A stretch of DNA of 64,000 nucleotides from Octopus vulgaris (taxonomy: Eukaryota): contig OX597827.1 of assembly GCA_951406725.2 (NCBI GenBank), positions 55,676,001 to 55,740,000 on the forward strand, given 5' to 3'. Position numbers and translations under genes: made by a program. Positions 699 to 63,942 of this stretch are shown one piece after another (the stretch's first letter is position 1; each line of letters begins with the position of its first letter). A model generated the notes under the pieces. That model did not search any database, had not been told where the DNA came from, and saw only the letters and a program-made list of their open reading frames with translations.

Positions 699-1224
699 CA
701 GTTCTATATTTAAGAGATGAGGAATTATATACATCATTTACATTTGACAGATATTTGTCCTCATCTTATTTGTTGTTAACACGTTTCGGTTGATATACCC
801 TCCAGCCTTCATCAGGTGTTTTGGGGAAATTTCAAACCTGGGTTCTCATCCCTAAGGTATTTTTCATTGTTGTTGTTGTTTTTTTCTTTTTGGTGAAGCA
901 ATATCGGTGATTCAAGAAAAACTAGCGACAGACACCCATCTAAAAGAATGCACTAGTATACCAATAAGAAACTTGATGGAAATGTTGACCTTCATTTGTG
1001 CATATGGCGTAATGGTTAAGAGTGCTGGCTACTAATCCCAAGATTCCAAGTTTGATTCCAGGCAGTGACCTGAATAATAATGATATCAAAAAATACCTTA
1101 GGAATGAGAACCCAGGTTCGAAATTTCCCCAAGACACCTGATGAAGGCTGGAGAGTATATCAGCTGAAACATTGTGTTAACAAACAAGATGAAGACAAAT
1201 ATCCATCAAATGCAAATAATGTAG
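699..1224. mobile_element. Palindromic non-autonomous retroelement: inverted body + spacer + tRNA-like head + hammerhead-bearing body
   Basis: Arms ~730-865 and ~1088-1223 are inverted copies; A/B boxes at 1005-1015 and 1050-1059; 9-bp direct repeat attaatatg at 690-698 and 1225-1233. Confidence 0.8.
1133..1178 (+). ncRNA. Minimal type-I hammerhead ribozyme motif (inverted, damaged copy at 777-820)
   Basis: GACAC-CUGAUGA-A-GGCUG..CAGCU-GAAA-CA-UU-GUGUU; stems I and II can pair. Confidence 0.7.
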
Positions 1225-1668
1225 ATTAATATGGACTACTTCCCACCAGAGGTAAAAAATGGGTCTGTATAGGGCCAAAACCCAAATCTAGAACTTGCAA
1301 AGTTACAGAAATAATCAATAACAATTTGAAACCAACCAGAGCTAGGAGAAGAAAGGACAACCCAGATTTGAGAGCAGTGAAGAAAAGTCATCAATGCTTG
1401 TGTTCCATAGGGTTTTAAATTTTGGTAAAAGGTAAGTGATTTCAGGGGAAGAGTAAATCGATTACATCAACCCCAGTGTTCAACTGGTACTTATTTTATT
1501 GACCCTGAAAGGATGAAAGGCGAAGGTGAACCTAGCGGCATTTGAACTCAGAACATAAAGCTGGAAGAAATGCTACTAAGCATTTTTCCTAGCTTGGTGA
1601 CGACTCTGCCAACTCACCACCGCCTTATGTACTTTGATATTAATTACATTAATTGTATTGCTACTTAC

Positions 1669-1722
1669 TAGTTTATTGAATTCATTCCAGTCACTCACTA
1701 CATTATTTGACATATATAATAC
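1669..1722 (-). CDS. DNAL1: DNAL1 exon (VLYMSNNVVSDWNEFNKL)
   Basis: ttcag/gtaagt boundaries, 54 bp, phase 0; resembles LC1 'ILYMSNNLVKDWAEFVKL'. Confidence 0.95.
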
Positions 1723-1874
1723 CTGAAATGATAAACAAGAAATAATCTCTCTATATATAACAGCCAATGTCAGCTTTTTTATTTGTTAGTTCTGTTATGC
1801 TGTATGAAGTCACTCTCTTTCTCTCACACACACATACATACATACATACACACACACATACATACATACATACA

Positions 1875-2104
1875 TTTCTTTATTACCCACAAGGGGCTAA
1901 ACACAGAGGGGACAAACAAGGATAGACATAGGTATTAAGTCGATTACATCGAACCCAGTGTGTAACTGGTACTTAATTTATCGACCCCGAAAGGATGAAA
2001 GGCAAAGTCGACCTCGGCAGAATTTGAACTCACAACGTAACGGCAGACGAAATACGGCTACGCATTTCGCCCGGCGTGCTAACGTTTCTGCCAGCTCGCC
2101 GCCA
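1875..2104 (-). mobile_element. SINE family B (copies include 1413-1626, 4490-4678, 5456-5668, 11358-11580, 15716-15920, 15985-16200, 25503-25706, 27367-27566, 29290-29890 x3, 30892-31105, 59486-60005)
   Basis: Head GGCGGCGAGCTGGCAGAA...GAGTTCAAATTC with A/B-box-like motifs; shared core CCTTTCATCCTTTCGGGGTCGATAAA. Confidence 0.85.
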
Positions 2105-2649
2105 TAGATACATACATACATACATTAGTGTAGCTAGAGTGTGTGCTGCCTGGGGCAGCCCTTCCATCTGTCACCCCACTGGACCCCACAAAAAACACAT
2201 ATGGCTTACAGCAAACCCAAAAGTGCCACCTGGGGCAGACTGCACCTACTGCCCCCTCCCCCAGCTATACACACATATACATACTACTTCCAGTTCAAAT
2301 GCATTATGGTATATCATATTTGAAGGTTGGCAGTCAGACATTTTCAATAAATACAGGCATATACTATTCATGTTTTGTATACATTTAAATGTTTTAGATG
2401 GTAGCTGAGAATCAATTTGTCGCTGAATCCTAGACTCAACTGAAAAACAAAACTCACTCTGCTTAATAGCTTCATCTCACTATCAGTCTTCAGTCATAAT
2501 ACAGATTGTATCAATTTACAATATTATAACAGTTACTTTCAATCACATCTTCAATAAACAGCAGAATGCAAATTTTTACAGATTCCAGTTGAAATCACCA
2601 TAACAACAACCATTTTATGTTACCTAGGATACAAAATTTCATGTTACCT

Positions 2650-3411
2650 AAGATACAAAATAGAAAATAATTCTCTGCAAACTGATCTGGAAAGATTGAA
2701 TCTCTTCATTGATTACCAAGTGCCTAGCAATACTAAACAACCACAATGACTACTAAGTTTGTTAAGTGTCTTACAAAATGGATATATCTTTTCTTGAAAC
2801 TAATTCAACCCCAGTTAAATCTTATTTTCCCTACCAAAGAAAGACACCTGGATGCTGTTCATCTGCTTAAAATTTCAACAGTTAATACCCTTCTCTCACC
2901 TATCTTAACTGAAATATTATATATTGAAACTGATGCTTTTAGAACAACAATCTCAAGTGTCCTTTCTCAGTGTAACAAATCACTCAAAATTCACTTTCTC
3001 CTTGACTAAATTTCTTGTCAATTAAAAGATAAAATTATTAACCATCTTACTAACAATAACTCTGAGCACCTTTTCAAACTCCATCTGTCTAACACCCGTG
3101 GACATGTTTACAAAGTCAGAAAACAGCACAGCTCCCATGACTTTCGGAAACATTTTTTTACACTGAGAGTTGCTGAAGTATGGAACAAACTGCCGGCATA
3201 AGCTGTTAGTTGTCGGAGCACTGCATCCTTCAAAACTTCCATGCTTCCTGAGATTCGCCAACACTACACCTGATTTTCTCCCCTCCATACACATGTAAGC
3301 ATGTATCTGACTCATACACTGTTCACTTTCTAGACATTTGTACATTACTGCATATGCTTTATATGCACTTTTGACAAGTTGTGGTGTACCTGAGCACTGT
3401 ATACAATAACT

Positions 3412-3445
<34 letters not shown>

Positions 3446-3449
3446 CATT

Positions 3450-3490
<41 letters not shown>

Positions 3491-4130
3491 TATAATCTAT
3501 GACTGTCACAGAAAGTGTTAGGAAATGGAGAACATTTTCATTTTGAGGCCATTTTACATTACACACTGATCTATAAGTAGTCTTTTCCTATTTAATCACA
3601 AAAGCAGAAGAAAAATGAAGATAAGATAAGATTGGCCAGAATTATCACTGAAAAGTTCCTGGCTTTGGGTAAAAGAAAATACAGGAGGACCAGTTAATTA
3701 TGATTTTATTTAACCTATTCCCCTCTTAGATTCACACACTTATTGCAGTGGTCCTTCAGTTTTCTAAGCCCTGTAAAATAACTCAGAAGGTTGGGCCTCC
3801 AACCAGGCCTTTTGCGATATCTTTAAAACCAGGAACTTTTAGGCACCCCCTTGTACAATTATGACATTAGAGATAACACAGCTGCTAATTCTCTTGCCAG
3901 ATGCACTTAGTCAAATCTAAGAACTTTGCAAAATGTTAAAAAAAACTTATACTGAAAGCATTGCATATTCAGAATTGAAATCACAATTCTAGTAATCTCT
4001 TCATGCTAAACATTTCATTTCCACAAATCTGTGTTGGCTTGAAAAGCTTTCTACCAACATATAACTCTTACAGCTACTTGTTTATGGTTATAGATCAATA
4101 CTCAACATTTCTTGTGTTTCTGTGTTTAGA
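2650..4130 (+). mobile_element. Decayed Ty3/Gypsy pol relic, interrupted by a CR1-like insertion
   Basis: RNase H-like IETDAFRTTISSVLSQ, YNYDI..DNTAANSLAR and integrase-like SYLFMVIDQYSTF fragments, with stops and frameshifts. Confidence 0.6.
3030..3494 (+). mobile_element. CR1/L2-type LINE 3' fragment with (ATT)n tail; other copies 7634-7980(-), ~16425-16720(-), 21515-21883(+), 58240-58450(-)
   Basis: Encodes SNTRGHVYKVRKQH..RKHFF..RVAEVWNKLP, a typical CR1-group ORF2 C-terminus; several near-identical copies in the window. Confidence 0.8.
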
Positions 4131-4817
4131 TACTCAGACAATTGAAGTGACAAACCCTAGCCAGAAGATACAGCCCCATCTGAAAGTTTGAGCTCTCTGC
4201 AGGAAATCTATTAGACTCTGAATCTACTGAAGAGACATATATTGCAGATTGCTACAGTGTTGACCTGTTGACGAGTCAACCCAAGAAAAATCCTAGGTCT
4301 GCTGATGATTGCTGCAGTAATGTGCTGAGGAGTCAGACTCAACAAATATAAGGGCTGGAGCAGTCCAGCAACAGCCTTGTGAGAGGAGGAAATTAAGCTC
4401 CACCACTTGAAGTTCATTGTCACAGATTTTCATAATGTAAAGTGCTTATAACTATAATTTTCATTAAAATCATGTTTGTTAACATATTGGTTTCAAATTT
4501 TGGCACAAGGCCAGCAACTCTGAGGGCAGACATAAGTCACTTAAATCGACCCCAGTGCTCAACTGGTACTTCGTTTATCGACCCCAAAAGGATGAAAGGT
4601 AAAGTCGAGTCGACCTCGGCAGAATTTGAACTCAGAACGTAAAAACAGACGAAATACTGCTAAGCAATTTTGCCACCTTAACGTTTGTTAACATGTTGAA
4701 ACTACACACCACGAAAAATAAAACAAAAAAAAAAACCCTTCAATTTTTCTGTAGTGATTTAAGGGAGAATACTCTGGAGCATTATTTTCTTGCATGCTAA
4801 AATACTCCATAGCATCT

Positions 4818-5410
4818 CGTGGCTTGCATACCTCTCACAAGCCATTCGTCTTCACCTAGTTCTCTTATTTGTCACCAGACTACAAGGCATAGTACCCTGT
4901 CAAAGGCCTGCTCCAAGTCAATGAATGCTTGGTATAGTAACTTGCTCTTTAGTAAGAACCTCTGTAGTTGCCTCGCTATAAAGAGGGCATCACTAATATC
5001 CTGTCCCCGCACAAACCTGAACTACATCACATCTAAGCTATTTCTTCCTGATTACTTCATAACTTGGTCTATCAGTTTGAGACCTCTGTAGTTGCTTCTA
5101 AAACATTCTTTTATCTTTACAGGAGCTGATGATACTACAGTGTTAATCATCAGGAATGACTCCTTCCTGAACAACTTGATTAGTTATGCAAATGACTAAT
5201 GAATGTGAGTTCGTAATGAGTCCAATGAGGGATTTAGCATGCAGGTAGGTGTCCATCAGGGTCTCATTTCCAGCTCTCTCATATGTATCTTAGTTCCCCA
5301 GGTCATAAAGAGGAATTTAAAACTGGCTATCTGTGGGTACCTCTGTATACTGATGACCTAACTATATCTAGAATCATCAATTTTAGAGTAAACCTACTAA
5401 AGACAAAGCA
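4818..5410. mobile_element. RTE-clade LINE reverse transcriptase relic with internal inversion
   Basis: Minus 4818-5200: DALFIARQLQ..AFIDLEQAFDRV..LGEDEWLVR; plus 5205-5410: VGVHQG..PLYTDDL. Confidence 0.8.
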
Positions 5411-6416
5411 GGAAGGAAAATAGGACATTACTGCCATTCAGAAAACAAGCAAATTTTTCAAATTTTGGTACAAGGCCAGCAAATTCAGGCATGTGGGTAA
5501 GTTGGTTACATCAACCTCAGTGTTCAACTGGTACTTATTTTATTGACCCTGAAAGGGTGAAAGGCAAAGTCGACCTTGGTGGAATTTGAACTCAGAACAT
5601 ACAGATGGATGATATACTGCTAAGCATTTTACCCAGCATGCTAAAGGTTCTGCCAGCTTGCTGCCTTAAGCAAGTTAGATATTACAAAATAAATAAATAA
5701 ATGAATGATAAAAAAATAAAAAGAACTTGAATGCATTATAAGAGGCATAGATATGAAGGCCTATAAATAAAGTAACACCCACATTTGTGTATGAAATTAT
5801 ATAAAGGCCCAGGCATGGCTGTGAAGTAAGAAGCTTGCTTCCAAACCACATGGTTCAGAGCTCAGTCCCACTGCATGACACCTTGGGCAAGTGTCTTCTA
5901 CTATAGCCTTGTGAGTGGATTTGGTAGAGGGAAACTGAAAGAAGCCTGCCATATATATGTATACATACATGTGTGTGTGTGTGTGTGTGTGAGTGTGTGT
6001 GTATGTGTGTGTGTGTATGTGTGTGTGTCTTTGTGTTTGTCCTCCACTGCTGCTTGACACACCAACACCAGTTATCAAACGGTGGTGGAGGTCCAATACA
6101 ATAAACATGAGGCTTAACAAAAAATAAGTACTAGGGTCAATTCATTTGACTAAAACAAATTGCTCAAGCTGGTACCCCAGCATGTTTGATGGGATTCAAC
6201 ACAGTTTGTCTATCAAATTAACTCACAAAGAATTGGTTGGCCTAGGGTTATAGTATAAGACACTTGCCCAAGGTGCTGCACAGTGAAACTGAATCTGAAA
6301 CCATGTAGTTGGGAAGCAAACTTCTCACCTCACAGCCATGGCCCTTCTTCCTATGACTAAGCTGTCACTAGATTTGAACATTCGGAATACTAAAAGAGTT
6401 CAAGCACATTACTTAC

Positions 6417-6506
6417 CCGTAGATTCTTCAGAACATTGATACCTTTCAGTTTTTCTACTAAGTTGTAAGAAATCCACAGCTGTTCAAGTGTTTCTCCAAC
6501 AGCATC
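6417..6506 (-). CDS. DNAL1: DNAL1 exon ([30 protein letters not shown])
   Basis: 90 bp LRR exon; ttcaag acceptor, gtaagt donor; resembles LC1 '[22 protein letters not shown]'. Confidence 0.95.
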
Positions 6507-6948
6507 CTTGAAAATAGACAATGAGTTTCTTGACTTTTAACTTGAATAATTAATCAACAACAGAATTATGGTTCTTCCCTATTGAATATAGTCACAAGAA
6601 TCTAAGTAAACTAGAGGCTGTTGTTGTTTAGCTTCAGGTCAGCTTTGATGGAGCAAGTCAATGACGAAGGTATTTCTGTCACAATTCCCTCACTTGTTTC
6701 CCAAACCTACTGCATGTAGAACACCATTATATACATTATTCAACAAGCCTTTCCCTTGTCTTTTTTTTTAAGACAAAGATGGGATTTGAAGGAAATTTAA
6801 CTGTGAGCAAATTAAATTTAGCTAGATAGTTTTTCCAAAAAACAAAAAAATTTTAACTAATCATGCTATAGTAAAGTAAAAAAAAAAACAAAAAAAAGAA
6901 AGGAAGAAAGGAAAAAACACAAAATCTATAATTTTGTTACAAACTTAC

Positions 6949-7004
6949 CAAACCAGTTAGAACTTTGATTTTGTTTCTACCCAAAGAAAGTATTTTCAAA
7001 TTTT
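6949..7004 (-). CDS. DNAL1: DNAL1 exon (KNLKILSLGRNKIKVLTGL)
   Basis: 56 bp, ttcag/gtaagt, phase consistent with neighbours; LRR motif LSLGRN. Confidence 0.95.
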
Positions 7005-7058
7005 CTGAAAATTTATTGAAAATTGTGAATTTATTATTTGATTAAATTTATAAAATTT

Positions 7059-7439
7059 CATTGTTATACCTGGAGATGGTTATTTTTTTTTGCCATTTAA
7101 ACAGATGCACTATTTATTTAATCTTCACTTTAGTTTTTATTTGTATTATTTTTTAGCTTATACATCTCTCAAAGTTCTTTCATCACACATTCTTTGACTT
7201 CATCAGTGACTCTCTTTGACATATATATATAAACTAAAATTAATACGAATAATTATTGTTAGTTTATACATCTGTCAAAGAGTCACTGATCAGGTCACAG
7301 AATGTGTGACAAAAGTGAAGATAGTATAAATAGTGCATATATTTAATTGATAAAAGAAAACAAAAAATAACCATTTCCAAGTATAACAATACCTGTTCTA
7401 CGCATGTTTTCACATCAAGAATCTTGCAAAACAAATACA
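7059..7439. mobile_element. Asymmetric palindromic insertion with two degenerate hammerhead cores
   Basis: Inverted arms span 7060-7390; minus-strand core CUGAUGA-A-GUCA..UGAU-GAAA at 7178-7206; mutated plus-strand core at 7286-7314; 16-bp near-direct repeat at 7043-7058 and 7440-7455. Confidence 0.65.
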
Positions 7440-8416
7440 TAAATATATAAAATTTTAGATCTACATATCATTTGAATAAATATTACTTTGTCAGTTTAAA
7501 ATATCATGAAGGCTCCCCTTTCATTAAGCACTCACTTGCCTTGCAGAATTGGACAAGAATCGACACTAAAGATTTGATATTTATGCTATTTCAATTTCAC
7601 CCTTTATCTTTTGTTTGTTTCAGTCATCAGGCATGGGAGCTGTGCTGTTTTCTGACTTTGTAAACATGTCCACAGGTGTTAGACAGGTGGAATTTGAAAA
7701 GGTGCTCAGAGTTATTGTTGGTAAGATGGTTAATAATTTTATGGGTGTCTGCCAAGTCAGCTGCTAGATGTCAGAGTTTCAATGTATCCATGCCCAGGGA
7801 AGTAAGGCGTTCAGAATATGGCAAATGCCTGATGGAGGGTATTCTCTTGGATGCATGTTCATCTCTTGCTTCTTATTATTCTCCTCATGTTGCAGTGATA
7901 AATCCTTTGGGGAAAGGCATGAATATCACAAGTTCCATTTTCCTCTTCATAAAATACCTACTGATAGATGTTGCCAATTTTGAGTAGGCACAGGTGTAGG
8001 TGTGTGGTAAGGAGCTTGCTTCCCAACAACATGATTCCAGGTTCAGTTCCACTGCGTGGCACCTTGGGCAAGTGTCTTCTACTATAGTCTTGTGCTGACC
8101 AAAGCCCTGTGAGTGGATTTGGTAGATGGAAACTGAAAGAATCCTATCATGTATATATGTGTGTGTGTGTGTGTTTGTGTTTGTTTGTCCCTCCCCCCAC
8201 CATTTGACAACTGGTATTGGGTTTGTTTACGTCCCTGTAACTTAGCAGTTTGGCAAAAGACACTGATAAAATAAGTACCAGGCTTAAAAAAATCGTAAGT
8301 ACTGGGGTTGATTCATTGAACTAAAATTCTTCAAGGTGGGGTCCCAGCATGGCTGCAGTTTAATGACTGAAACGAGTAAAAGATAAAAGGATTAAAATGT
8401 TGTTTTTTTTTCTTAT

Positions 8417-8840
8417 GGCGTAGGAGTGGCTGTGTGGTAAGTAGCTTGCTTATGAACCACATGGTTCTGGGTTCAGTCCCACAGCGTGACACCTTGGGCA
8501 AGTGTCTTCTACTATAGCCTCAGGTCGACCAAAGCCTTGTGAGTGGATTTGGTAGATGGAAACTGAAAGAAGCCTGTCGTATATATGTATATGTATATGT
8601 ATGTGTGTGTGTATATGTTTGTGTGTCTGTGTTTGTCCCCCCAACATCGCTTGATAGCCAATGCTGGTGTGTTTACGTCGCCGTAACTTAGCAGTTTAGC
8701 AAAAAAGAGACTAATAGAATAAGTACTAGTCTTACAAAAGAATAAGTCCTGGGGTCAATTTGCTCGACTAAAAGGCGGTGCTCCAGCATGGCCACAGTCA
8801 AATGACTGAAACAAGTAAAAGAGTAAAAGGGTAAAGAGTA
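8417..8840 (+). mobile_element. tRNA-derived SINE family A (copies include 5807-6185+, 7986-8390+, 12327-12700-, 26233-26601-, 33850-34256-, 37128-37569-, 46514-46885+, 50290-50445-)
   Basis: tRNA-like head (TGGCTGTGTGG...GGTTCAGTCCC), shared body with internal TA/TG microsatellite, short repeat tail GAGTAAAA; many similar copies. Confidence 0.85.
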
Positions 8841-8988
8841 TGTAAGCACCATAAAACAGATAAGATTTTGGTTAGCTTAGATTTTAACCCAGTTTCTACC
8901 CTACATCATTGCTTTCTTATTCCACTAACTTAAATGAAGTTGCTTAAAATTGTAATAAATTCATTAAAATTACACAAAACAAACTTAC

Positions 8989-9044
8989 TGAGCCCATTCA
9001 AATTTGCAATTTTTTCAATATTATTTGTAGACAATGACAAATGC
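8989..9044 (-). CDS. DNAL1: DNAL1 exon (EHLSLSTNNIEKIANLNGL)
   Basis: 56 bp, tatag/gtaagt; near identical to LC1 'LSLSTNCIEKIANLNGL'. Confidence 0.96.
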
Positions 9045-9190
9045 CTATAAGAAAGAAAATGAAAAATAATTCCACTCATCTAAATTTTCAGCTTTTATCA
9101 CTTGAACATGTTAAAAATACACACACACATAATGTATATGTATGTTTGTGTGTAAATCTATCTGTATGTGTGTATGTATGTGTGTATGTA

Positions 9191-9273
<83 letters not shown>

Positions 9274-9682
9274 GTGAATGTGTGTTTTAAAAAATTATGG
9301 AACGGAGCAGATAAATAAAGTCCAGGGTACATATGTTTCATAGCTAGCAGATCCTCAGAAGTAGTAAATATATACACACATATACATATATATGTACAGA
9401 TAGATAGATAGATAGATAGATAACACACATTATATCACATTTTCATTTGAACTAATATATAACGACCAACATCGTATTATAAGACAGCAGTGTGTGATTT
9501 TAGGGATGTGTTGGCTGCTATTTCTAGCAGTTTAGAGATCATATAAAGGCCCTTTCGTTGGTTCAAGACACAGAAGCTATCTTTATGCTAACACAGTATG
9601 AGAAATTAAGTTTGCATCTTGCTGCCTAAACAACATAATTTAATACATGACAAAAGCGCCATACAGAGACGTTTATAAATAA

Positions 9683-10197
9683 CTAGCAGTATCGCCCGGC
9701 GTTGCTCGGGTTTGTAAGGGAAATAACTATATAAGCATTTTTAGAGAGTTACTTCCCTTATAGATGCCAATTCGGGCTTTCTTAGCCATTTCTGTTTTGG
9801 TGTCTTCAAGCCATGAAGTCGTTGTTCTAAAAGAACGCTGGTCTCCTTGACAACGCTTTACGACGTTGATTTCCTTACACTCCCTTCCCCACAGCTTCAC
9901 GAGGGAGGGAAGAAGGGGAGAAGCAAACAGGTGCAGGTGTGACCATGGACGCCAACTCCGCCGCCATCGACACACAAAAAATTATGCATTAAAATGGAAT
10001 AAAAAACGATGTTAAATTATTTTTAAAATCGTAGACTCATCGTAGACGCGCGCTAATACTCAGACGGGCTCGATATGAATCACGACTATAAGATACCCGA
10101 ATTTGGTTAAACTGCACCGCAAAATGTGGGAGTAGTTAGGAATCTAAATCGAAGGGGACAGACACTCACACAACTACAGTTTTATATATATAGAAGA
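9683..10197 (-). mobile_element. Non-autonomous Helitron (515 bp)
   Basis: 5' TC, 3' CTAG, subterminal hairpin CCCGAGCAACGCCGGG (9695-9710), inserted between A and T, no TSD. Confidence 0.88.
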
Positions 10198-11650
10198 TTG
10201 TTTTATTACTGGCAACAAGTTTGTAACATAATTTAAGTTACTGTAGCTCATCCGCTAGTCACGAAACAGGGGAGTTAACTCCTTAAGCATTTAAACCTGT
10301 GAACAGATGTTAATGCAGAAACAGATGTTTCAAAGACCTATTTACTCCCCCCCCCGGCCCCAAAAATCTATTTCCCTCTCAAGACACTATGGCATACCTA
10401 ACACATACCTTTCTTGAAAGGGGGAAAAATTGATGGGAACGCACACATCCATATTGATACACATTACAACACATCTACAAAATGAATCATAAAATTTTGA
10501 AAAAATTATGAGATGTCAGTAGATATGTATACATTCCCACCAATCTTTTTTTTTTTCCTCACATTAAGTTTCTATATAACTGTAATTTACACCATCTGAA
10601 AGCTAATTGTAGAAAATTTCATTAAAAATTATCCATTTTTCTGAAAGTTATGAGAAAACAAAGTGAATTATCTAAAACGTCTTCTTCACCCATAGAAAAC
10701 ATTTTCACAACAAATTTCGAAATAGTTGTAACTTACATTATCTGAAAGGTATTTGTAGAAAATTTCTCTAAAAAATAACCCCTCCTCTTTTTTTTTTTTT
10801 TTGATAGTTATGAGGAAACAAATTCGAATATGGAGGAAGCTCAGTTGTGTAGTTATACGGACAATATAAAATTTAACCAACTAAACGTAATTTTGTTTAG
10901 AAAGTTAATGCTTTTTTGGAATTTCTGTGCTTCATATCAAAAATGCAAAAAAGACGAAAGCTAAGAACAAAGCCTATGCTAGCGAGTGTGGAGCCCAATT
11001 AGAGAATTGTCAGTGGCGCCCTCTACTCAACAAAAGCTGAAGATTGATGTTTTATGCTTTGTGTTGAATGCCAGTCCCAGCCAAAAAACATTGAGACATT
11101 GAAGCTCCACCATTACTCACAATGATATACTTAAAAACTCTTCATAGTCTCCTCCACTCAAGCACATGTGCAGGACTCTCTCTTGGTGCAGGGTCCGATT
11201 TGAACAAATCTGTCTAAATGACTTAAAACTGGCCCTGTATAAGAATAATGATGCTGTCAATGATGGTGGTAGTTGTTGTATGATGACAACAACGGTGGCA
11301 ACCTTAGGGAGGACAGGGGTTGTTGTCATAGTGATTGCGATCACGACTATGATAGATAATTCTTTCTACTATAGGCACAAGGTCAAAAATTTGTTGGGGC
11401 AGGGATTAGTCAACTACATTGATCCCAGCATTCAACTGGTAATTATTTTAACGATGCTGAAAAAAAAAAAAACCGAAAGGTAAAATCGACCTGGGCAGAA
11501 TTTGAGCTCAGAATGTGAATACAGATGAAGTGCTGCTAAGCAGTTTGTCCAGTGTGCTAACGATTCTGCCAGCTAATCATCGTATGATGATAATTGATCA
11601 TGATGATAGACATTGTAAATAGTTGGTCTTCTATGAGAAAATACACTTAC

Positions 11651-11763
11651 TCGCAAGCAGCTAATGTGGTCACTGTTGGATCAATCTTCTCAATGAAAGG
11701 AACTTGGAATGAGAAATTTAAAACTTTGGTTTCTACAGCTTTTTGACCTTCATTTTCCTTTTC
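11651..11763 (-). CDS. DNAL1: DNAL1 exon (EKENEGQKAVETKVLNFSFQVPFIEKIDPTVTTLAAC)
   Basis: 113 bp, ttcag/gtaagt; aligns by eye to LC1 'QIPPIEKMDASLSMLANCE'. Confidence 0.93.
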
Positions 11764-12218: not shown

Positions 12219-12249
<31 letters not shown>

Positions 12250-51865: not shown

Positions 51866-51915
51866 CTGATCTCAAGTAATAATTCTAAAAGGTGCCCCAC
51901 ACTGAAACCATAACC
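51866..51915 (-). CDS. EXOC6: EXOC6 exon (GYGFSVGHLLELLLEI)
   Basis: 50 bp, ttcag/gttagt. Confidence 0.94.
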
Positions 51916-53993: not shown

Positions 53994-54065
53994 CCGCAGT
54001 GTATGGCAGAACAAAAGAATAAGGTTTTTAATTTCCAACATGATATTCTCAGAATTGCAATATCC
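53994..54065 (-). CDS. EXOC6: EXOC6 exon (GYCNSENIMLEIKNLILLFCHTLR)
   Basis: 72 bp, ttcag/gtgagt. Confidence 0.95.
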
Positions 54066-55417
54066 CTGAAATACAAAAAGACAGCTGAGTTTGGGTGGTG
54101 AAATTTTGATAAAATTTTTTATAAAGAGACACAAAAACTGAGAAATGAAGTTTCTGATAACAAAAAGGATTTTGTAGCTCAAAATAAAGATTTTAGATTC
54201 TATATAAATGCCATCAAATATAATATTTAGTGTAAAAGGCTTGTTTCCTTAATAAATAAATGCGATCACATATACAAGACAATAAGGATTTTTTATATCT
54301 GTGGTTCTTAATCTGTGTGGTAGTGGCCCTTTGGGGGCATTGTGTGTTCAGAAAAGGGACAGTAAATGTTGAAGTGTGCAATGGGGGTGGAGGCAGTGCG
54401 TATTTAGAGGGATTACGATTTTCCTTATAAATACAATATTTAAAGCAATATTTCAAACATTTTTTTTACAATAATATTTTTCAAGATTAAAATATGAACA
54501 GGAAGAACATTGCATTATTATTGAGCAGAGACATGGTTGATGATGCACTAAGATCCAGTATAATTTTCTTATTTAAGCTTCCATTTTTAGTCATTTCCAT
54601 AGGGGCCACCAGTCGACACAAACATCTAGAAATGAGGCACATGCTTGACAGGATACTATAATATGAATAAATATATCATTGCTTAAACCATTAATGTTCA
54701 GATTATTCTGTCAAATGTAATGCTTATTTGCTCAAAGTGGTTTGAATTAATCATGCTTTATCTCGTTGCTTCTAGATTCCAATGAGGTGATAGTATATTT
54801 TTATATGGCTAATTTAAATGCCAAAGGGTGAAAACTGGCTTCAGTTTGATTAAAATGATCTACTGCTTTTTATTTTTAATTTTTTGTTACAACATGGGTA
54901 GGGAGTTGTTTGCAAAATCCTACTCTTTAAAAGGGGGCACTGAGTTACAAAAGGTTGAAAACATATGGTCACTCAATCTGCTAGAAATAGCTGCCACATT
55001 TTTTCTAAATCATATCCCATCAACTTGAAGAAGGATAAATTGAACAATATAGGTATACATATATATATGTTACATAGGAAGTTATGAAGATAAACACAAG
55101 CTTCATACAAATATATTTATATGGAGCACAAAGAAATTGAGAATAAAAGTACTGAATAAGATAAGCTTATCTTAATCTGTACTTTTATTCTCTATTTTTT
55201 TTTGCACTTCATGTAAATGTATAATTTTGTCAAGTATAACTGTATTTATCTCTATTACTTCCATCATATCAGCTCAATTTGGATTTCTTCTACACCCATT
55301 CCTGATGGTATGGGCCTTGCCTGGACCAAATATTTAAAGTTTAAATCCTCTTGAGTACTATGATGAGTTTTCTATACTGAGCATACCCAGCTCTCACACC
55401 AACTCTCTCTCTCTCTA

Positions 55418-55455
<38 letters not shown>

Positions 55456-55505
55456 CACACACATATATATATCTGTAAATGTAATATGTGACAATTATTC
55501 GGTAG

Positions 55506-55573
55506 CCATGATAAAACTCCAAGTTTCGAATGCCAAGGTGGAAATCCACGCCACCATCTCTTCAGTTATCTGG
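55506..55573 (-). ncRNA. Type-I hammerhead ribozyme overlapping a 56-bp-arm hairpin (55473-55643)
   Basis: CCAGAUAA-CUGAAGA-GAUG...CAUUC-GAAA-CUUGGAG-UU-UUAUC(A)UGG. Confidence 0.78.
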
Positions 55574-56283
55574 CCATCGGAAAAATACGAAACTCGGAGT
55601 TTTATCATGGCTACCGAATAATTGTCACATATTACATTTACAGTTAAATTCCTCTATTTACATAATATCGAGGTCTCTTTCATTCTTTTGTTGTCTTACC
55701 ATTTTAATCAATATATATATATATATATATATGGTTGAAATGTACAAAAAACAAAAGGTAGAAAGAGATGAGGGAACAACAAGCAAGGTGTATTAATTTG
55801 ATGCTGGGGAAAAATGTAAAAGTCTTTGACATTTCCAGCCTGTGCTCTTTGACAGAAAAGAATGAGAAAAAAATGGAGAGAAAGGAAAAAAAATGGAGAG
55901 AGATAAAAAATGTATATATATGTATGTATGCATGCATGTATGTATGTTAAAGACAATGTTTTTTGTATTTGGGATCCCTTTGATCCTAGTTTGTTTGGTC
56001 AGGGATGACTTGGCACTAAACAACAACAATTATCACATATAAATAATATTAACACATTTTATCCTACTTGTAATGTATAATGGTAGCTTCAGTAAAATTC
56101 GTTTTCCTGTTGTTGTTAATATAAAGAAACAAGAAAAAAACTTTTCTGCTTGTATTATGTACAACATTGCAGTTAGTCATAAAACAAAGCAGTAAAATTA
56201 TGCCATATTGATACTTTAAGGAAATATATTTTAAAGTTAAACTGATGTGTGTGTGTGAGAGGGAAGGGCCCTGATAAACTTAC

Positions 56284-56404
56284 ACAATTCCTACGCAATT
56301 CAGCAGCTATTTTTGACACAGCCATTTCCCATAATTCATCCATATAGGCCTGGTTTACAAGACCACTTGTTGTGTTCAGAATGTGATCTTCCACCACAAA
56401 AAAT
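56284..56404 (-). CDS. EXOC6: EXOC6 exon (GFFVVEDHILNTTSGLVNQAYMDELWEMAVSKIAAELRRNC)
   Basis: 121 bp, ttcag/gtaagt; conserved GFFVVEDHIL motif. Confidence 0.97.
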
Positions 56405-56564
56405 CTGAAATGGTATAAAACAAAGAATTATCACTAACACATCAACAATGATTGAGAGAGAGAGAAAACAAAATATGTCATTAAATAAGACAAACATGGA
56501 ACTTAAGAAAAATCGTTTTACAATTAAGCCTCTTGTCTCCTAATAACTAACTTCAGGAACCATT

Positions 56565-56775
56565 GAAGGATCCTCTACATGGGTGCTCAGACTGCTAGAA
56601 ATAGCAGCTAAATCTTTCTTAAATCACACCATACTGTCTTTGAAAAAACTATAGCACTTGGAGGATAATGTGGTTGTAGATGCTTTGTTTGAATAAAAGA
56701 TGGAATGGTCATGGCTGGAATGCTTTTGGTCATAGGTCTGCTTGATCATTGTTGACTCAGAGCTGAAGTACAACT
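56565..56775 (+). repeat. Old dispersed repeat family E (CTGCTAGAAATAGCAGCCAAATC...GGTCATGGCTGGAATG); about a dozen diverged copies in the window
   Basis: Recurs at ~6615, 13020, 15270, 31225, 31975, 54960, 57500, 61100, 61700 and 62890. Confidence 0.7.
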
Positions 56776-57036
56776 ATTAAACTCCAATCATGGAACATCT
56801 CTGATCGTGGATTTGCTTAGTCAGGTCTGGACTGGGGTTCAAAAACAACCATAACTGGTACTTTATCAATTTCTCAGTGATGTAAAGCAAAACTAACTTT
56901 GAAGTCAAAACTAAATATTCTAAGTCATACATTCATAGCCTACAAAGTGTAAGACTTGTTAGAGAAGAGCTGTGACTGTGTTACATTCATGCTTTTATAT
57001 TACAGAAGGTATCAGAATACTTAAACTTTGACTTAC

Positions 57037-57083
57037 CCAACAACATCATGAAAATACAATTTATAGGAATCTAAACTTTCATA
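57037..57083 (-). CDS. EXOC6: EXOC6 exon (YESLDSYKLYFHDVV-G)
   Basis: 47 bp, ttcag/gtaagt, phase consistent. Confidence 0.93.
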
Positions 57084-58241
57084 CTGAAATGAAAAGAAAA
57101 CATGAAATTTAAAGGATACGTAAGAAATATTACTTTTATAACAGTGCTCTGTTTCTAATGTTTCTAAAACATTAACATTCCAGAGAAATGTTTTATTGAT
57201 CACTCAATGTAATTTAAATACCTTAATAATCATTCCATTTTGACGTCTACTTTTCCATACTTATATCATGAAGGTTAAATAGAACATATAATAGAGTTAG
57301 AGTTAGCTGAATCAACAGGGACTATTCAAGGGCCATAGTTCATACAGTACTACCAGTGGCATAGCTAGAGTATGTCTCCCATTCAACCCCAACAAACAGC
57401 CTATGCTGGTTTATATAGCAAGCTCCAAACTGCTGCCTTCATATGCAGCTATGCTATCACTGTTGTGATAACTCTAAGACAAAGTGAGAGACCACTAAGT
57501 GGACCTTCTAGAAATAGCAGCCAACTCTCACCCCCCAAATCACAACCTACTATCTTAAACAGGAAGAACACTGGATAATGCAGCATGAAATGTACTATGG
57601 CAGGTAATAATAAAATGAGATAATAACAGCTGGATGGCTGTTAACCATAGGAGTTTGATAAGGGTTGATCTGAAGCTAAACAACAATAACTCATTTAATA
57701 GCCTAGTTTATCAACAGATATTGATGATGCAACTTAAAATAAGGTCATAAGCATGGTTTCATGCCATTCAGCGTATTATATAACAATTCAATGTTTCATT
57801 AATTTTTAGTACTGAGGTCACTTTAAGCTTGTAGATGGCAATGGCCATGCGGTTAAGAAGTTTGGGTTTCAAGTTTGGTCCCACACCATGGCATCTTAGG
57901 CAAGTGTCTTCATCTACAGATTCTACTGAACACTGCCTTAAGAGCAAAACCCAAAGACAGTAACAGTGTGGAAGCCTGAAATGTACATATGTATATTTGA
58001 ATGTATGTATGTGCACGTTTGGATTATTTACACATGTCTCTCCATTTCTGTTTTGATGTTAACACTGCTTGAGAACCAGTGTTCAGCATTCATATTCGTT
58101 AACTTAGCAGTTTGATAAATAGAGATCATCATCAAGTACTAGATTTAAAAGTAAGAATTAAGGGCCAATATGATCAACTTTAAACCCTTCAAGGCAGTGC
58201 CCCAGCATGGATGCAGTCCAACAATTTAAACATGAAATTAA

Positions 58242-58282
<41 letters not shown>

Positions 58283-58960
58283 TGAAATTATTGTATACAG
58301 TGCTCAGGTGCACCACAACTCGTCAGAAAGTGAGTATAAAGTATATGCAGTAATGTACAAATGTCTGGAAAGTGAACAATGTATGAGTCAGATACATGCT
58401 TGTGTGTATAGAGGGGAGAAAATCAGGTGTAGTGTTGGCGAATCTCAGAATGAAATTAACAAAACACTCCTAAGATATATTATGCAAGCTCTATGAGCTG
58501 GTATTTTTACACTCACAACCACTAAACCATTTTGAAAAATGTAGATATTAAAGACACTAAACTTCTGTGGACAAGCGACTATTAACAAGAGGTTCTGGAA
58601 TCATTGTTTTCATTTATAGTTTTGTCTATTTTTATATCCTTTCAATGACCCATGTTAGCAAGGGTCAGATAGCATTGTGAATTTTAAATAGTTGCATAAA
58701 CTATTGCAATAAGCTGCCATAAATCATCATTATTCTCTTAATGCTAGTTTTAGACTGGATTAGAAATGTGTACTGTAGCACGTATAGCCACTCCCGTTGA
58801 TGTACCTGTGAGGATCAATGTCCTGAATTCTGATTTCATCTATGCCATCTTTAGTGAATTGGTTTCCTAAAAAGGTTAAATAATATTAATAAGCTTTGAA
58901 TTAAGGTGCCACAGTATGAAGATGATGTGTATGCAAATAAGAATAAAATAAAAATATGTA

Positions 58961-59010
<50 letters not shown>

Positions 59011-59031
59011 AATATATGAAGCAAGACATAC

Positions 59032-59115
59032 CATGTTTTGCGAAGGTTTTAAGGATAAACGCGCTTGTTTTCGCCTCTGTTTCCGGTAGTATGTTTCAAA
59101 AGTTTCCCGTGCACC
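59032..59115 (-). CDS. EXOC6: EXOC6 exon (GARETFETYYRKQRRKQARLSLKPSQNM)
   Basis: 84 bp, ctag/gtatgt; conserved YYRKQRRKQARL motif. Confidence 0.97.
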
Positions 59116-60505
59116 CTAGACGGAATAAGAGAAAAGTGAAATTAAAAGGAACCAGTGGTTTATTTCAGTTTGTTTACTACTTCAGCTTAACAGCTGAGAT
59201 AAATAACAATGATAAATAAGGTGCATGATATTGCTAGAATGATACTCTTTTACTTGTTTCAGTCATACTATACAAGAATGGAAATAAAATACAATAAAAT
59301 AAAACCTATGAGTTAGAGTGATAAGAAACCAAAGATTTGGAACAATAATGCCTTTACTGAGGACACAAATGAAACCATCATAAGTGAGAGCTGATATGGA
59401 GCTGTATTAAGTGCTCACCACAAATAACAAAACCTTACACAAAGAAAGTGTGAGCAATGTAAAAAAACTAATATTTAGGAGGTTGAAGGTGGTGAGCTAG
59501 CAGAATCATTAGCACACCAGGTGAAAATATTTGGCGGAATTTTGTCTGTCTTTACATTCTGAGTTCAAATTCTGCCAATGTTGATTTTTAAGGTGACGAG
59601 CTGGCAGAATCACTAGCATGCCAAGCAAAATTCTGAGTGGAATTGCATTTGTCTTTACATTCTGAGTTCAAATTCCACTGAGGTCGACTTTGCTTTTCAT
59701 CCTTTTGGGCTCGATAAAAAGAGTGCCAATTGAACGCTGGAGTTGTTGTAATTGACATACCTGCTCCCTTGAAGTTGCTGGCCTTGTACCAAAATTTGAA
59801 ATCATTATTCGTATTATTAAGGTAGCAAGGTGGACAAAGTGTTTAGTGGTATTTTGTACATCTTCATGTTTTGAGTTGGGGTTGACTTTGCCTTTCATCC
59901 TTTTAGGGTTGACAAAATAGGTACCAGTCAAGTACTAAGGTTGATGTAATCAACTTCTCCCACCCAACAAAGACTTCTAACCTTGTGTCAAAATTTGAAA
60001 CAGTTCTTATTATTAATATTATAAGCACATTAGGGTAGTGGGTTGGCAGAATCAGTAGAGGTGGGTAAAACTATCATCATCACTGAATGTTTGCTTTTAA
60101 TATGCTTGCATGGGTTGGACTGGCCTTCTTTAGCAAAGCATCCCACTGCTTGTTGCAGTCCCTTATCAACATGTTCATTGAAGTCCAACCTCCTGAGATC
60201 TTTCATTACATCTTCTCATGTCTTCTTTTTCTGAGTATAATATGAAATCAAATACACAATATACCTTTGCTTTACATTCCCTTGCTTAAATAAAATACCA
60301 GTCAAATATTGGGGATGACATAAATGACTATCTACCCATCCCGGAAAAAATGGTTGGCCTTGTGTGTATTTAAAAAAATTATAGTTTTATTCATGCCATT
60401 GCCTATGTTACATTCCTAGTAAAAACATTTGATTCTTTCCAAGTTTACCCAGCCAAAGTGTTAAGAATCAAACACAAAAACCAGTATTTTTTCGATAATA
60501 CTTAC

Positions 60506-60574
60506 CAAAACTGAATATATATGAAGGCATCTGTAAACTGGTGAGAAGTCAATTAGGTCCTGAGCACTAAGTTC
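60506..60574 (-). CDS. EXOC6: EXOC6 exon (ELSAQDLIDFSPVYRCLHIYSVL)
   Basis: 69 bp, ttcag/gtaagt; conserved DFSPVYRCLHIY motif. Confidence 0.97.
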
Positions 60575-62663
60575 CTGAAAGGGAAAAGGAAATAAAAATG
60601 TACATCATGGTAGAACAGAAGACTATCAATCAGTTGCTGTGCTTTTGAAGTTACAAATAGCTGTAAACAGCATTTGATTTTCTTTGTTTGCCCCCACCCT
60701 CATGTGTAGGATGAAGTTACTTATCCCAGGTCAGCTCTCATAAAGTTGTGACCCCCTTCGGTCATGAATGACCATGGGATTGCACCTAGAAAGTTACCCT
60801 CTGAGGCACAAGTCTGGGCAAGGTTGCTTTATGGAAGACCGGCAGTCGCCCACGCATACCAGCCTCCCCTCTCCATGCCACAGATGTTATCCAAGGGAAA
60901 TGCAAAGGCCGATACAGCTTGGCACCAGTGACATCGCAGCTCATTTATTAATTATTAACGTGCAAGTGGCTGAGCACTCCACAAACATGTGTACCCTTAA
61001 CGTAGTTCTCGGGGAGATTCAGCGTGACACAGAGTGTAACAAGGCTGGCCCTTTGAAATACAGGTACAACAGAAACAAAGCATTCCAGCAGCAATCATCC
61101 TGTCCTTTTGTGTATCTAGGACTACACTGTCCAATGTTTCTTTCTTTTGTCATTTCAGATAGAAGTGTGTAGTTTGAGAGAGATTTTGCTGCTATTTCTA
61201 GTAGGTTGAGTAAGAGTATAGGCACTACCTCACAGGCTCAAAGTTTGGTTGCTATTTATCATAGGTAGATTAGTTAGTGTGGTGGAAATTTCTCAGTGGT
61301 TTATTTTGATTCCTAACTACAAAACATTTCACTTGACTTTCTCTTAAAGGCCAACTTGTTATTGCTGTGTAACCACAGGTCAGTTTTGTAGTTATCAGCC
61401 AAATTTAGGTGCAATCCGGAGGGCCAGATAGAATATGTCCTGATATTTATTCCAACTCTTTACCTTCTATGAATCATTATTGAAGCAGTGGAGGTGCAGA
61501 AATTGCGGAATGATAGGCTAAAAGCCTTGCAATATTTACATCTGTGTATATTTTGAGTTCCAATATTGCTATGGTTAATTTTATCTTCTACACTGCCGAG
61601 ACTAATAAAATAAATACTAAATATTGGGGTCATACTAATCAACTGACAAATCTTGGTCTTAAGCTAACATTGTAAAATATCATTATCATTATTCTCAAGA
61701 GAGGGCATCAAAGTCATCACTCAACCTGCTAGAAACAGCAGTCAAACCTTCCTCAAACCACGCCCTATAGTTATAAACAAGACAGGGCACATTGGATAAT
61801 TGATTTCTTTGAAATATCATGTCTGGAGATGAAAAATTGGATAGGTCATGGCTGGAGTGCTTCTGATCACAGATCTTGGTTAGAGCTGAACTGAGGTTAA
61901 AAAAGGCCAGACTATATACTTTATGGTCTCTAGTCTGGTGCTTTACATTAGTTTGTAAAAATACTGCTTATATTTTGACAGAAAAAGTATCAATACATAC
62001 TCAACAGAATCTGAGAACAATATTTGGTAGAGCTTCAGTATGATACTCAGCAAATTAATAATATAATTATTTAACGTGGATGTTCTATTACAACAAACTA
62101 TTCTATGGTAGATACTATGATAGAAACTCTCATATAGGCTTTTAGTGCAAAATGCACTCTTGTTTATATATCACTAGTGGGGAGATAAATCCCTACGAAC
62201 TCCAGCACCGAGACTACCAGATCACGTAATTTCAACCTTCATTGGTCTTATCAACGATGGACACTCAACCTCTAGAGATAGTATCAACTCATCTCTCCAA
62301 CAGTGATAAATATGAAAAAAAAATGCTAGAACAGGTACTGGTATCGCGATTAGCCAGTGAGCTTGTTAAAAAATATATATTAGCAACGGAGGCAGTATTA
62401 CTATCAGGAGGTAATATTTATTTCCATGTTGGTTTTTTTTGTGCAAAATGCAAAAAAGCCAATGTGAGCGTTTCTCTCATGGTATCTACAATAGTATAGT
62501 AAGTTCTAACACAACATCCATGTTTAAGTAGGAATAAATATTACCTCTACTGAACCAGAGTTACACTCAATCAACTGAACTTCACACACACACAAACACA
62601 CTAAGAAAACTTGTGCTAAGGATAATAATACTGAAATTATATTGAAAATTTCTGTATGCTTAC

Positions 62664-62798
62664 TTCATCTAGTTGTTCCTCCTCAGATTCTTCTTGGACT
62701 TGAGGTATCTCTCCAGTGAATGGATTAGGGGGTGGTGGTGCTCTACGCCGACGTTTCTGTTTCACAATGGAGGGATCAATATTGTTCTGCTCAGCAGC
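62664..62798 (-). CDS. EXOC6: EXOC6 exon (AAEQNNIDPSIVKQKRRRRAPPPPNPFTGEIPQVQEESEEEQLDE); upstream exons lie outside the window
   Basis: 135 bp, phase 0, ttcag/gtaagc; joins in frame to the 60506-60574 exon. Confidence 0.9.
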
Positions 62799-63659
62799 CT
62801 GAAATGACAAATAATATATGTATAAGTATGTACAAATATGTGTGTGTGTGTGTGTATATATATATACACACATATCGTTATCATTATTCTCAAGAGAGGG
62901 CATCAAAGTCATCACTGAACCTGCTAGAAACAGCAGTCAAACATTCCTCAAATCACACCCTATAGTCATAAACAAGACAGGGCAAACTGGATAATTGATT
63001 TCCTTGAAATACTATATCTGGAGATGAAAAGTGGATAGGTCATGGCTGGAGTGCTTCTGATCACAGATCTTTTTGGTTAGAGCTGAACTGAGGTTATCAT
63101 CAGTTAAAATATACTTGGGGCATATTTGAACCCAAGAGAAAGCCATTCACTGTGTTTTGTCACGGAGAAACTTTCTCACTGTAGACAAATGGTGTAAATA
63201 CACCAAAATCAGTTCACAGCACCATACACACGCACAGAGTTTGTTATAGTCATGCATACAAAACATAAGAGCTCAGATAGTATTTACATACATACACCAC
63301 AAACAGGGAAATTAATTTTTAATTTCCTGAAATCTCACCCCTTTGGTTTTTAAGAGTTGTCAACAACTGCAGCTTGGTTTTTGCTTACTTTCTCCAAGCT
63401 TTGAGGCAAATTTTAATTCATTAAGAATTTTTTTGAGATACAGTATACAGCCATATGAGGTACATCATTCAGTTTATATCTGAATTGTGTAGCATACTAG
63501 GATTTAGAGATCATTGCATACCCTGGCCAATAAATGCCCCAAAATAAAAAAAAAAATTAAATCTCAGGGTTATATAGAGTAAGAGAAGAATTTGAATTAT
63601 TAGGTACTTTTAGAGAGAAAACCTGTGTGAGACACAAATGGAATAAACTACTGAAAGTG

Positions 63660-63706
<47 letters not shown>

Positions 63707-63881
63707 GGGTGGCTTATTAACAATTTACCAACCAAAAGGCAAAATTATAGATGTCACTAAAGTGACACAGGGAACTAAGTAGTACCAGCACTGCTAGAAA
63801 TAAGAGTCAAAACAACTCAATAGACACAGATAGCACCATCTTAGTGACTGACAAAGGAGACAAGCTTCCTACAGTGGATAT

Positions 63882-63942
63882 AGCCAGATCACCGGTGATT
63901 TTGAATTTTGATGCTAGAGCATCTGAATACTCATCGGTGGCT
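63882..63942 (-). ncRNA. Degenerate type-I hammerhead motif
   Basis: AGCCA-CCGAUGA-G..GAUGC-UCUA-GCAUC..C-AAAA-UCACCGGUGA-UC-UGGCU; stems present, two core substitutions. Confidence 0.6.

Follow-up and report, generated by a model that had tools for sequence, protein, structure and literature searches.

The question raised by this 64,000-nt stretch of Octopus vulgaris DNA (the window) is what hammerhead ribozyme motifs of several kinds are doing in the introns of two conserved genes. A sequence-only reading had reported the type I layout at six places, and all six are present: 777-820 (minus strand) with 1133-1178 (plus), 7178-7314 (one arm per strand), 34328-34419 (plus), 43956-44049 (minus), 55506-55573 (minus) and 63882-63942 (minus). 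Every locus is intronic, as that reading had it, and the two host genes can be named.

134..13584, minus strand: host gene DNAL1 (axonemal dynein light chain 1), continuing beyond the left window edge
13584-13540, 11763-11650, 9043-8990, 7005-6949, ~6510-6420, 1731-1669 and 175-134, minus strand: coding exons of DNAL1
33524..62798, minus strand: host gene EXOC6B/Sec15, with 16 coding exon matches in the window and more exons to the right

Pfam gave no match in any of 150 frames, taken from the 178 unmasked ones of positions 1-33500, and a splice-site scan overlooked DNAL1; since this gene was later recognised from a short exon, both blanks are uninformative.

The motifs are not chance matches. 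With 40 shuffles each, descriptor matches in the window numbered 2, 3 and 2 against means of 0.025, 0.25 and 0.5, and a stricter descriptor gave 1 match against 0 in 20 shuffles. The stronger proof is that, as had been noticed, the stem sequences differ: the loci belong to six families with unrelated stems and a common core. Rfam returned no hammerhead family match in the window or in seven loci, only microsatellite and hairpin noise.

These families, F1 to F6, are unrelated to one another and have hundreds to thousands of copies each (first-look candidates: F1 2855, F2 28-2275, F3 654, F4 1205, F5 2225-2443, F6 258-2075). In the window they are represented as follows.

699..864, minus strand: F1 inverted arm, the tail-bearing 3' end of a Penelope/Poseidon-type element; sense to DNAL1; holds hammerhead 777-820
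892..993, plus strand: reverse transcriptase fragment of the F1 parent, lying between the arms (34 codons; 31 of 34 residues identical to locus L191)
998..1072, plus strand: F1 head, derived from a tRNA and with A and B boxes; a degenerate cloverleaf and not a tRNA gene
1073..1226, plus strand: F1 (AAT)n, start codon at 1104 and hammerhead 1133-1178 inside the first ORF codons
7060..7390, both strands: F2 outward-facing inverted pair, the 3' end of a GIY-YIG-type element, ending 55 nt from a DNAL1 exon
34325..34632, plus strand: F3, the 3' end of a Hydra-clade element, antisense to EXOC6B in its last intron
43945..44178, minus strand: F4, the 3' end of a Hydra-clade element near the published Hydra-1_Obim, sense to EXOC6B
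55467..55712, both strands: F5 inverted pair, the 3' end of a Hydra-clade element, with hammerhead 55506-55573 on the minus strand
63702..63972, minus strand: F6, 0.8 of a 340-nt, ORF-less, circularly permuted unit, with hammerhead 63882-63942; sense to EXOC6B

A density of roughly one element per 10 kb, as first estimated, holds in the window; elsewhere the six families occupy 17 places in about 1 Mb (1 per 59 kb). Beyond them there are about ten more hammerhead families. Of 27 "other" descriptor matches, 14 were dropped as variants of F1, F2, F3 or F6, and 13 remained. The expectation that annotation would miss such elements does not hold: as repeats they are already annotated, the 2026 annotation of O. 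vulgaris assigning 6.83% of the genome to 190 families of Penelope-like elements (PMC13282606), in a main text from which the word ribozyme is absent.

The core (CUGANGA, GAAA and UH, closed by stem I) is complete in the majority lines of F1 to F5. Among best-matching copies it is intact in 36 of 55 for F1, 6 of 26 for F2, 44 of 51 for F3, 32 of 46 for F4 and 26 of 29 for F5; the low count for F6 (9/48) is due to a C at core position 4, found in 32 of the 48 copies. The palindromic stem III that had been described is exact in the majority lines of F1, F3 and F6, has one mismatch or one central base in F4 and F5, and is only partly palindromic in F2. Its self-duplex is worth -1.7 to -19.5 kcal/mol, against 0 to -0.9 for the hairpin. 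In all six families core positions diverge less from the majority than the others (0.035 against 0.098 in F4), which is unexpected under strictly neutral decay, a pattern that subfamily structure or the choice of best matches can also produce.

Most copies in the window are damaged, and only two retain the core with usable stems. The copy at 777-820 lacks two bases at stem III and the cut site, that at 1133-1178 has lost its stem III palindrome, and that at 43956-44049 is broken at the base of stem II; G12 is changed at 63882-63942, which also has C at position 4. In the F2 pair, the plus arm near ~7287 has G8 and G12 changed and the minus arm keeps the core with weak stems. F3 (34328-34419) has a full core and a 63-nt stem II and is the best-folded copy of the window, the core of F4 is intact, and the minus-strand hammerhead of F5 is complete with a full core, its plus arm holding the GAAA half and tail only. 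Published minimal hammerheads cleave weakly (PMC4209133).

Where do these pieces come from? Copies have a fixed 3' end and a ragged 5' end, most are short and protein-free, and an inverted arm is found in 20 of 30 F1 loci and 13 of 30 F4 loci. In five families, longer copies run unbroken into endonuclease-coding sequence, and in F1, F3, F4 and F5 into reverse transcriptase as well; the parents are one Penelope/Poseidon element, three Hydra elements and, for F2, a GIY-YIG-type element, and the copies are 5'-truncated and often 5'-inverted. The first locus of the window even holds a piece of its own parent's reverse transcriptase. We therefore consider it very probable that five loci are short, mostly decayed 3' pieces of coding Penelope-like elements, that the sixth is a protein-free 340-nt repeat likely borrowing the same enzymes, and that the hammerheads are likely cargo with no job in the host genes. 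The proposal of Penelope-linked, non-autonomous ribozyme retroposons thus stands for the Penelope link, the short self-complementary stem III and the ORF-less F6, and fails for the five families that run into coding parents.

F1 is assigned to the Penelope/Poseidon clade on its motifs. Of 30 loci fetched with upstream sequence, 29 have hammerhead-region sequence downstream of the parent ORF. The majority frame (798 aa; motifs DKG, YVDD and Y-x-G-x-T) is a single ORF with a DKG reverse transcriptase, then a GIY-YIG endonuclease with CCHH and no linker zinc finger. RVT_1 is recognised in the F1 parent (E 5.8e-8); Pfam gave firm confirmation for only 1 of 10 parent fragments. None of the parent ORFs seen was intact: among the 150 F1 protein matches listed, open frames reached 569 aa at most. 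Close relatives are also found in other assemblies. The pseudo-LTR has a partial tandem, an inverted 5' arm, a tail and the ORF start within the repeat. F1 shares DKG, the C-terminal GIY-YIG with CCHH, the missing linker finger, the ORF start at the hammerhead, the tail, the inverted 5' arm and partial tandems with descriptions of Penelope from Drosophila virilis (PMC2377424) and PAc from Anolis (PMC11167929).

In F2, the hammerhead lies 280-350 nt behind an endonuclease-like frame in all three loci checked of 14 fetched. Its relatives match GIY-YIG with low scores and have a linker with cysteines, features suggestive of Neptune or Nematis. Reverse transcriptase was not seen in the loci read, and direct comparison with the F1 endonuclease gave no match.

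F3, F4 and F5 are, by their motifs, Hydra-clade elements as these are described by Craig et al. 2021 (PMC8557442): the linker motif CxCX5C, CxxC and LN..CxH are found in F4 and likewise in F3 and F5 (single decayed copies in the latter two), CxxC and CxH flank E and N, CCHH is absent, the targets are (TA)n and the hammerhead is near the 3' end. By eye, the F4 reverse transcriptase closely follows the printed Hydra-1_Obim protein of Octopus bimaculoides (PMC8557442). They differ from the Hydra elements of that source in being other families with other stems and in their 3' regions of 0.6-1.1 kb, and F3 has an asparagine-rich stretch. F5 uses two alternative 3' ends (17 long and 12 short of 30).

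F6 is another matter. It has no frame above 45 codons, 40% GC, a circular fold with z = -4.6, two alternative 3' ends and two subfamilies in which both stem II and stem III carry paired changes (7/48 copies). A direct repeat at 328-341 nt is seen in 6 of 30 loci, and copies extend up to ~1.9 units; greater-than-unit copies are common and L338 has two hammerheads, with at least two full units at none of 40 scored places. This ORF-less, low-GC unit within 170-400 nt, with one type I hammerhead, head-to-tail permutation and a strong fold, resembles the non-LTR retrozymes (Cervera & de la Pena 2020, PMC7229834; Li, Clavereau & Pollet 2026 preprint). Unlike these, it is seen as 0.7-1.9 units and not in long arrays; its stem III is long and palindromic, and it has C at core position 4, a Penelope-type tail and 5' inversions. 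Copies starting at the cut site were considered and rejected: six junctions lie 14-27 nt behind the site in one set, but a downstream-only query gave none at the site. The site is read through in 18 of 29 copies (nearest starts -11, -9 and +3).

The mechanism that we propose is the following. The parent RNA would start within the pseudo-LTR and be reverse transcribed, beginning close to its 3' end, at a nick in AT-rich DNA, a mode established for the Penelope class. We infer nick-primed insertion here from 3' ends that are fixed, from the two alternative ends and from flanking microsatellites. Synthesis that halts early or folds back would give the truncated copies and outward-facing pairs, which are seen as structure. 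As for the hammerhead, its stem III is too short to fold alone; going by the literature, cleavage would be restricted to two copies joined through their palindromes and would serve to trim parent RNA in multimeric form. Cutting seems unneeded for insertion, since F6 copies read through the cut site.

It could instead be that each of the six is a non-autonomous ribozyme retroposon in its own right, a retrozyme or a SINE, and makes its own short RNA. Most copies are indeed short and ORF-free, and F6 fits this idea outright. The 5' ends of F1 cluster at its head, and clusters are also seen at 25-43 nt from the core in F4 (18/29), at 43-62 nt in F2 (18/29) and at 20-36 nt in F5 (13/30), as expected of short RNAs begun in solo pseudo-LTRs; these three clusters are less secure, since the queries began near them. 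On the contrary, F3 has no cluster (ends from -7 to -465; an apparent fixed 5' end was rejected as a query artefact), F1 to F5 showed no short repeats of constant length that exceed one unit, and in these five families the same sequence runs on into the coding parent along a smooth truncation gradient. The parent ORFs refute the strong form of the idea, and we find it improbable as a whole. Even less credible is that some copies were retained by the host for cutting DNAL1 or EXOC6B pre-mRNA. Five hammerheads are in the host-transcript sense, the distance to a DNAL1 exon is 55 nt for F2, and an EXOC6B donor lies ~50 nt from F6. The full core of F5 in EXOC6B sense makes some cleavage of this pre-mRNA conceivable, and it may occur. 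But four of the five sense hammerheads are damaged, the best-folded copy is antisense, the window copies have fold z-scores between -2.3 and +0.7, the density is that of a repeat-rich genome, and the stem III palindromes differ among the sense copies, which makes mutual pairing impossible. We thus retain the origin from coding Penelope-like elements, with F6 as a likely user of the same enzymes.

The F1 head deserves separate consideration. This tRNA-derived sequence sits just before the start codon. With the lowered threshold, ARAGORN recognises a degenerate tRNA-Ser(ACT) shape, and with the default score it finds no tRNA gene in 15 F1 loci. In the majority of 30 long copies both boxes (A and B) survive, whereas the acceptor stem and the T stem do not. 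Short copies start at the head in 15 of 17 and 21 of 29 cases (L006 was classed as inside the head rather than below -15, its upstream match being unlinked, and L012, at -18, was put in the cluster). That F1 is a free-standing SINE was rejected, as long copies run into the ORF; the short ones have no separate non-coding master, and the head belongs to the coding element. Most likely, F1 RNA starts at this head. Whether RNA polymerase III starts the short copies there, as end clustering and the T-run count indirectly suggest, is a matter of about even chances.

Almost as probable is that the head is no promoter: it would descend from a SINE insertion in the pseudo-LTR and have been carried along, the 5' ends piling up because a GC-rich palindrome stalls reverse transcription or makes it fold back into the inverted arm, or because RNase P cuts there. 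A 12-base palindrome overlaps the start of the head, palindromes are known at pseudo-LTR 5' ends and inversion junctions (PMC3846280), and many F1 5' ends are inversion junctions. In addition, 6 of 29 head matches stop at (AAT)n and lack the hammerhead part, as a plain SINE would; 4 of 8 head-before-ORF copies extend upstream into the preceding endonuclease, which means that some RNAs began earlier; and the 5' ends of other families cluster without a tRNA head. Against this, A and B boxes have outlived the acceptor and T stems, and the 5' ends lie at -20 to +4 of the head, the region where a polymerase III start is expected. The F1 majority sequence (2667 nt) has no T4 run where 2.6-4.7 are expected (P 0.008-0.06 with three nulls), unlike a Hydra control (6 against 4.9-5.7), a depletion that is weak in single copies: two long ones have 0 and 4 runs, and at one site T4 is present in 2 of 3 copies yet absent from the larger majority line.

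Hammerhead-bearing Penelope ends are a known kind, and the original observation, which matters little, repeats a 2014 result in a new genome. Pseudo-LTR ends that are 5'-truncated and often 5'-inverted were described in 2014 (PMC4209133) and 2021 (PMC8557442), octopus Hydra elements included. As in the minimal hammerheads of metazoan Penelope-like elements (Cervera & De la Pena 2014, PMC4209133), the motifs are of type I with a short helix I and a longer helix II, an extra base after A9 (F1, F2), G10.1-C11.1 and a palindromic stem III, and a genome contains many families, most motifs standing singly in truncated elements, with opposite-strand pairs 100-700 bp apart. The ~60-nt stem II of F3 and F4 sets the present elements apart, and we saw neither octopus nor a tRNA-like head mentioned in the 2014 text. 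What seems new is the F1 head: our literature search found no description of a tRNA-derived head in such an element, although Repbase or Dfam may already hold F1 with its head.

This head matters more, since Penelope-like transcription is known from very few cases. The pseudo-LTR promoter described for Penelope consists of Inr/DPE and an intron (PMC2377424), whereas F1 has tRNA-derived A and B boxes there; a coding retroelement driven by a tRNA-type promoter would, if true, be unusual. F1 resembles the SINE-like Sm-alpha and Sj-alpha of schistosomes (PMC6765202), with a polymerase III-type promoter, putative in F1, followed by a hammerhead; the schistosome elements are non-coding tandem SINEs, whereas the F1 head is in a coding Penelope-like element. 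F6 is a dispersed, retrozyme-like family of greater than unit length, and its ends preserve a record of the template, which offers a handle on whether spread requires cleavage. A more daring combined reading, which we hold to be rather unlikely, sees in F6 a retrozyme of cephalopods that spreads with C at position 4, and holds that F1 swapped its polymerase II promoter for a captured, tRNA-derived polymerase III promoter, so that one head would start both a T4-purged, 2.7-kb coding RNA and a 300-nt, hammerhead-bearing SINE-like RNA with thousands of copies. If this is true, F1 would be a SINE that arose within the very element that helps it, and would offer a route to hammerhead SINEs of the schistosome type.

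All six hammerhead loci lie in introns of DNAL1 and EXOC6B, two genes of the minus strand that were identified by exon matches (mostly 95-100%) to Octopus vulgaris proteins so labelled. Each locus contains one of six dispersed repeat families, F1 to F6.

Hammerhead loci and their placement
699-1226: F1, DNAL1 intron
7060-7390: F2, DNAL1 intron
from 34325: F3, EXOC6B intron, antisense to the gene
from 43945: F4, EXOC6B intron
from 55467: F5, EXOC6B intron, hammerhead sense to the gene
from 63702: F6, EXOC6B intron

The type-I layout proposed from the sequence alone (stem I, an intact or decayed CUGANGA, stem II, GAAA, stem III of short length, UH) is seen at every locus, and descriptor matches in the window exceed those in shuffled sequence in all four settings (2 versus 0.025, 3 versus 0.25, 2 versus 0.5 and, for the setting with 20 shuffles, 1 versus 0). 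The families are distinct, as had been claimed: their majority sequences have a common core and unrelated stems. In calculations on these family sequences, stem III is unable to form a hairpin by itself but can pair with a second copy. The window copies are worn, only F3 and F5 retaining the core and usable stems. Hammerhead positions are numbered in the customary way.

The density of about one hammerhead per 10 kb needs qualification. Elsewhere in this 2.8 Gb genome, the six families alone are sparser (17 places in about 1 Mb of bystander DNA), while about ten further families add 13 strict type-I matches in 1.26 Mb of bystander DNA, versus 0 in 0.51 Mb of shuffled sequence (loci L044, L330 and L422, of one family, and L242, L248, L463, L149, L173, L292, L413, L274, L287 and L141). 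The density of all families together may therefore be near the original figure, judging from these samples.

Matches to repeats of the fetched loci cover about one third of the window. At least three tRNA-type SINE families are abundant (1450-1640, 1933-2125, 5474-5690 and many more), and (TA)n, (CA)n and (AAT)n tracts are dense. Near-perfect long inverted repeats (96-99%) that have no hammerhead core (41160-41444; 17586-18950; 3029-3142 with 7629-7742) are probably young DNA transposons or MITEs. Decayed fragments at 19797-19988 (minus), 4875-5289 (minus) and 30409-30623 look by eye like R2/Hero-like and RTE-like LINEs; Pfam did not confirm these three. The intron that F1 occupies adjoins the DNAL1 exon 1669-1731 (minus), present in protein P0004 and missing from P0003 and P0007, which reflects either alternative splicing or a difference between models.

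Family copies share their 3' end, vary at their 5' end and frequently have an inverted arm that faces outward (20 of 30 F1 loci, 13 of 30 F4 loci). Walking upstream of F1 leads to a reverse transcriptase together with a CCHH-bearing GIY-YIG domain, motifs by which the parent is assigned to Penelope/Poseidon; the window copy keeps 34 codons of this reverse transcriptase between its two arms. Upstream of F3, F4 and F5 are endonucleases bearing the Hydra-clade motifs as defined in PMC8557442, whose supplement already contains an octopus Hydra element including its hammerhead. An endonuclease-like frame precedes F2 in the three loci checked, and the relatives of this frame have a cysteine linker. 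The families had been read as non-autonomous retroposons; this fails for F1 to F5, since they have coding parents, and holds for F6, which has no ORF. The elements described in PMC4209133 give the same overall picture, including lone motifs of truncated elements and opposite-strand pairs.

Some details of these families are worth recording. Relatives of the C-terminal half of F1 occur in other assemblies (proteins P0058-P0075, 55-69% identity). The coding region of an F3 parent (L358) includes a long asparagine/isoleucine-rich (AAT)n stretch, resembling inserts described for rotifer Penelope elements. One F5 copy (L281) contains, about 800 nt upstream of its hammerhead, an inverted piece that resembles the 5' part of U2 snRNA. 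The nine-letter stem III of the F5 majority sequence is shared with the hammerhead at which the PMC8557442 supplement entry directly preceding Hydra-1_Obim ends.

In F1, the stretch from the endonuclease stop to the start codon that follows holds an 80-nt tRNA-derived segment (the head, with A box and B box), then (AAT)n; the hammerhead is within the first codons of the ORF. The A- and B-box consensus and the polymerase III start and stop rules used here are the standard ones. The head may be a promoter at which the RNA starts. Followed towards their 5' end, 30 copies chosen by the hammerhead region end short of the head in 8 cases, inside it in 5 and between -18 and +4, counted from where the head begins, in 15, while 2 extend farther upstream; of 29 chosen by the head, 21 end between -20 and +2 and 8 extend farther upstream. 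Runs of four T are absent from the 2667 nt of the majority sequence (expected 2.6-4.7, P 0.008-0.06), versus 6 in the Hydra control, a depletion that is less clear in single copies. The head precedes the ORF in 8 of the 29 copies having its 5' part; 2 of these start at the head and 4 run on into an upstream copy. What speaks against a promoter is that a palindrome overlaps the start of the head, that palindromes of this kind are described at inversion junctions in PMC3846280, and that 5' ends are also clustered in the headless F2, F4 and F5. A literature search outside Repbase and most subscription papers turned up no report of a Penelope-like element with a tRNA head; the closest arrangement among its results is the schistosome hammerhead SINE as described in PMC6765202.

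In F6 (GC 40%), the sequence downstream of the hammerhead recurs upstream with a period of about 340 nt, and the hammerhead forms in the circular fold (z = -4.6). Paired changes in stem II and in the palindrome of stem III separate two subfamilies (7 of 48 copies); no other within-family covariation was found. The master probably carried C at position 4, because C is present in 32 of 48 copies and both CpG decay products occur. The ends form two clusters separated by about 50 nt; they lie next to (TA)n and come with 5' inversions, the signature of Penelope-type insertion. The cut site is read through in 18 of 29 copies, and none of 40 places has an array of at least two full units. F6 works like a non-LTR retrozyme, a class whose features it shows in part only.

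A mechanism can be proposed around the structure, parents, decay and F6 read-through observed here. PMC2377424 places the promoter of Penelope in the pseudo-LTR; PMC11167929 describes a tail produced by internal start of reverse transcription, AT-rich insertion targets and hammerhead cutting that is dispensable in vitro, and PMC4209133 reports weak dimer cleavage. The hammerheads, once paired, would trim multimeric parent RNA and so serve the parents, while the intronic copies of the window would be inert; a Penelope-type enzyme would mobilise F6, and F1 RNA would start at the tRNA-derived head. The hammerhead observation is real and for the most part already known; the interest of the case rests on the tRNA-headed F1 family and the retrozyme-like F6 unit.
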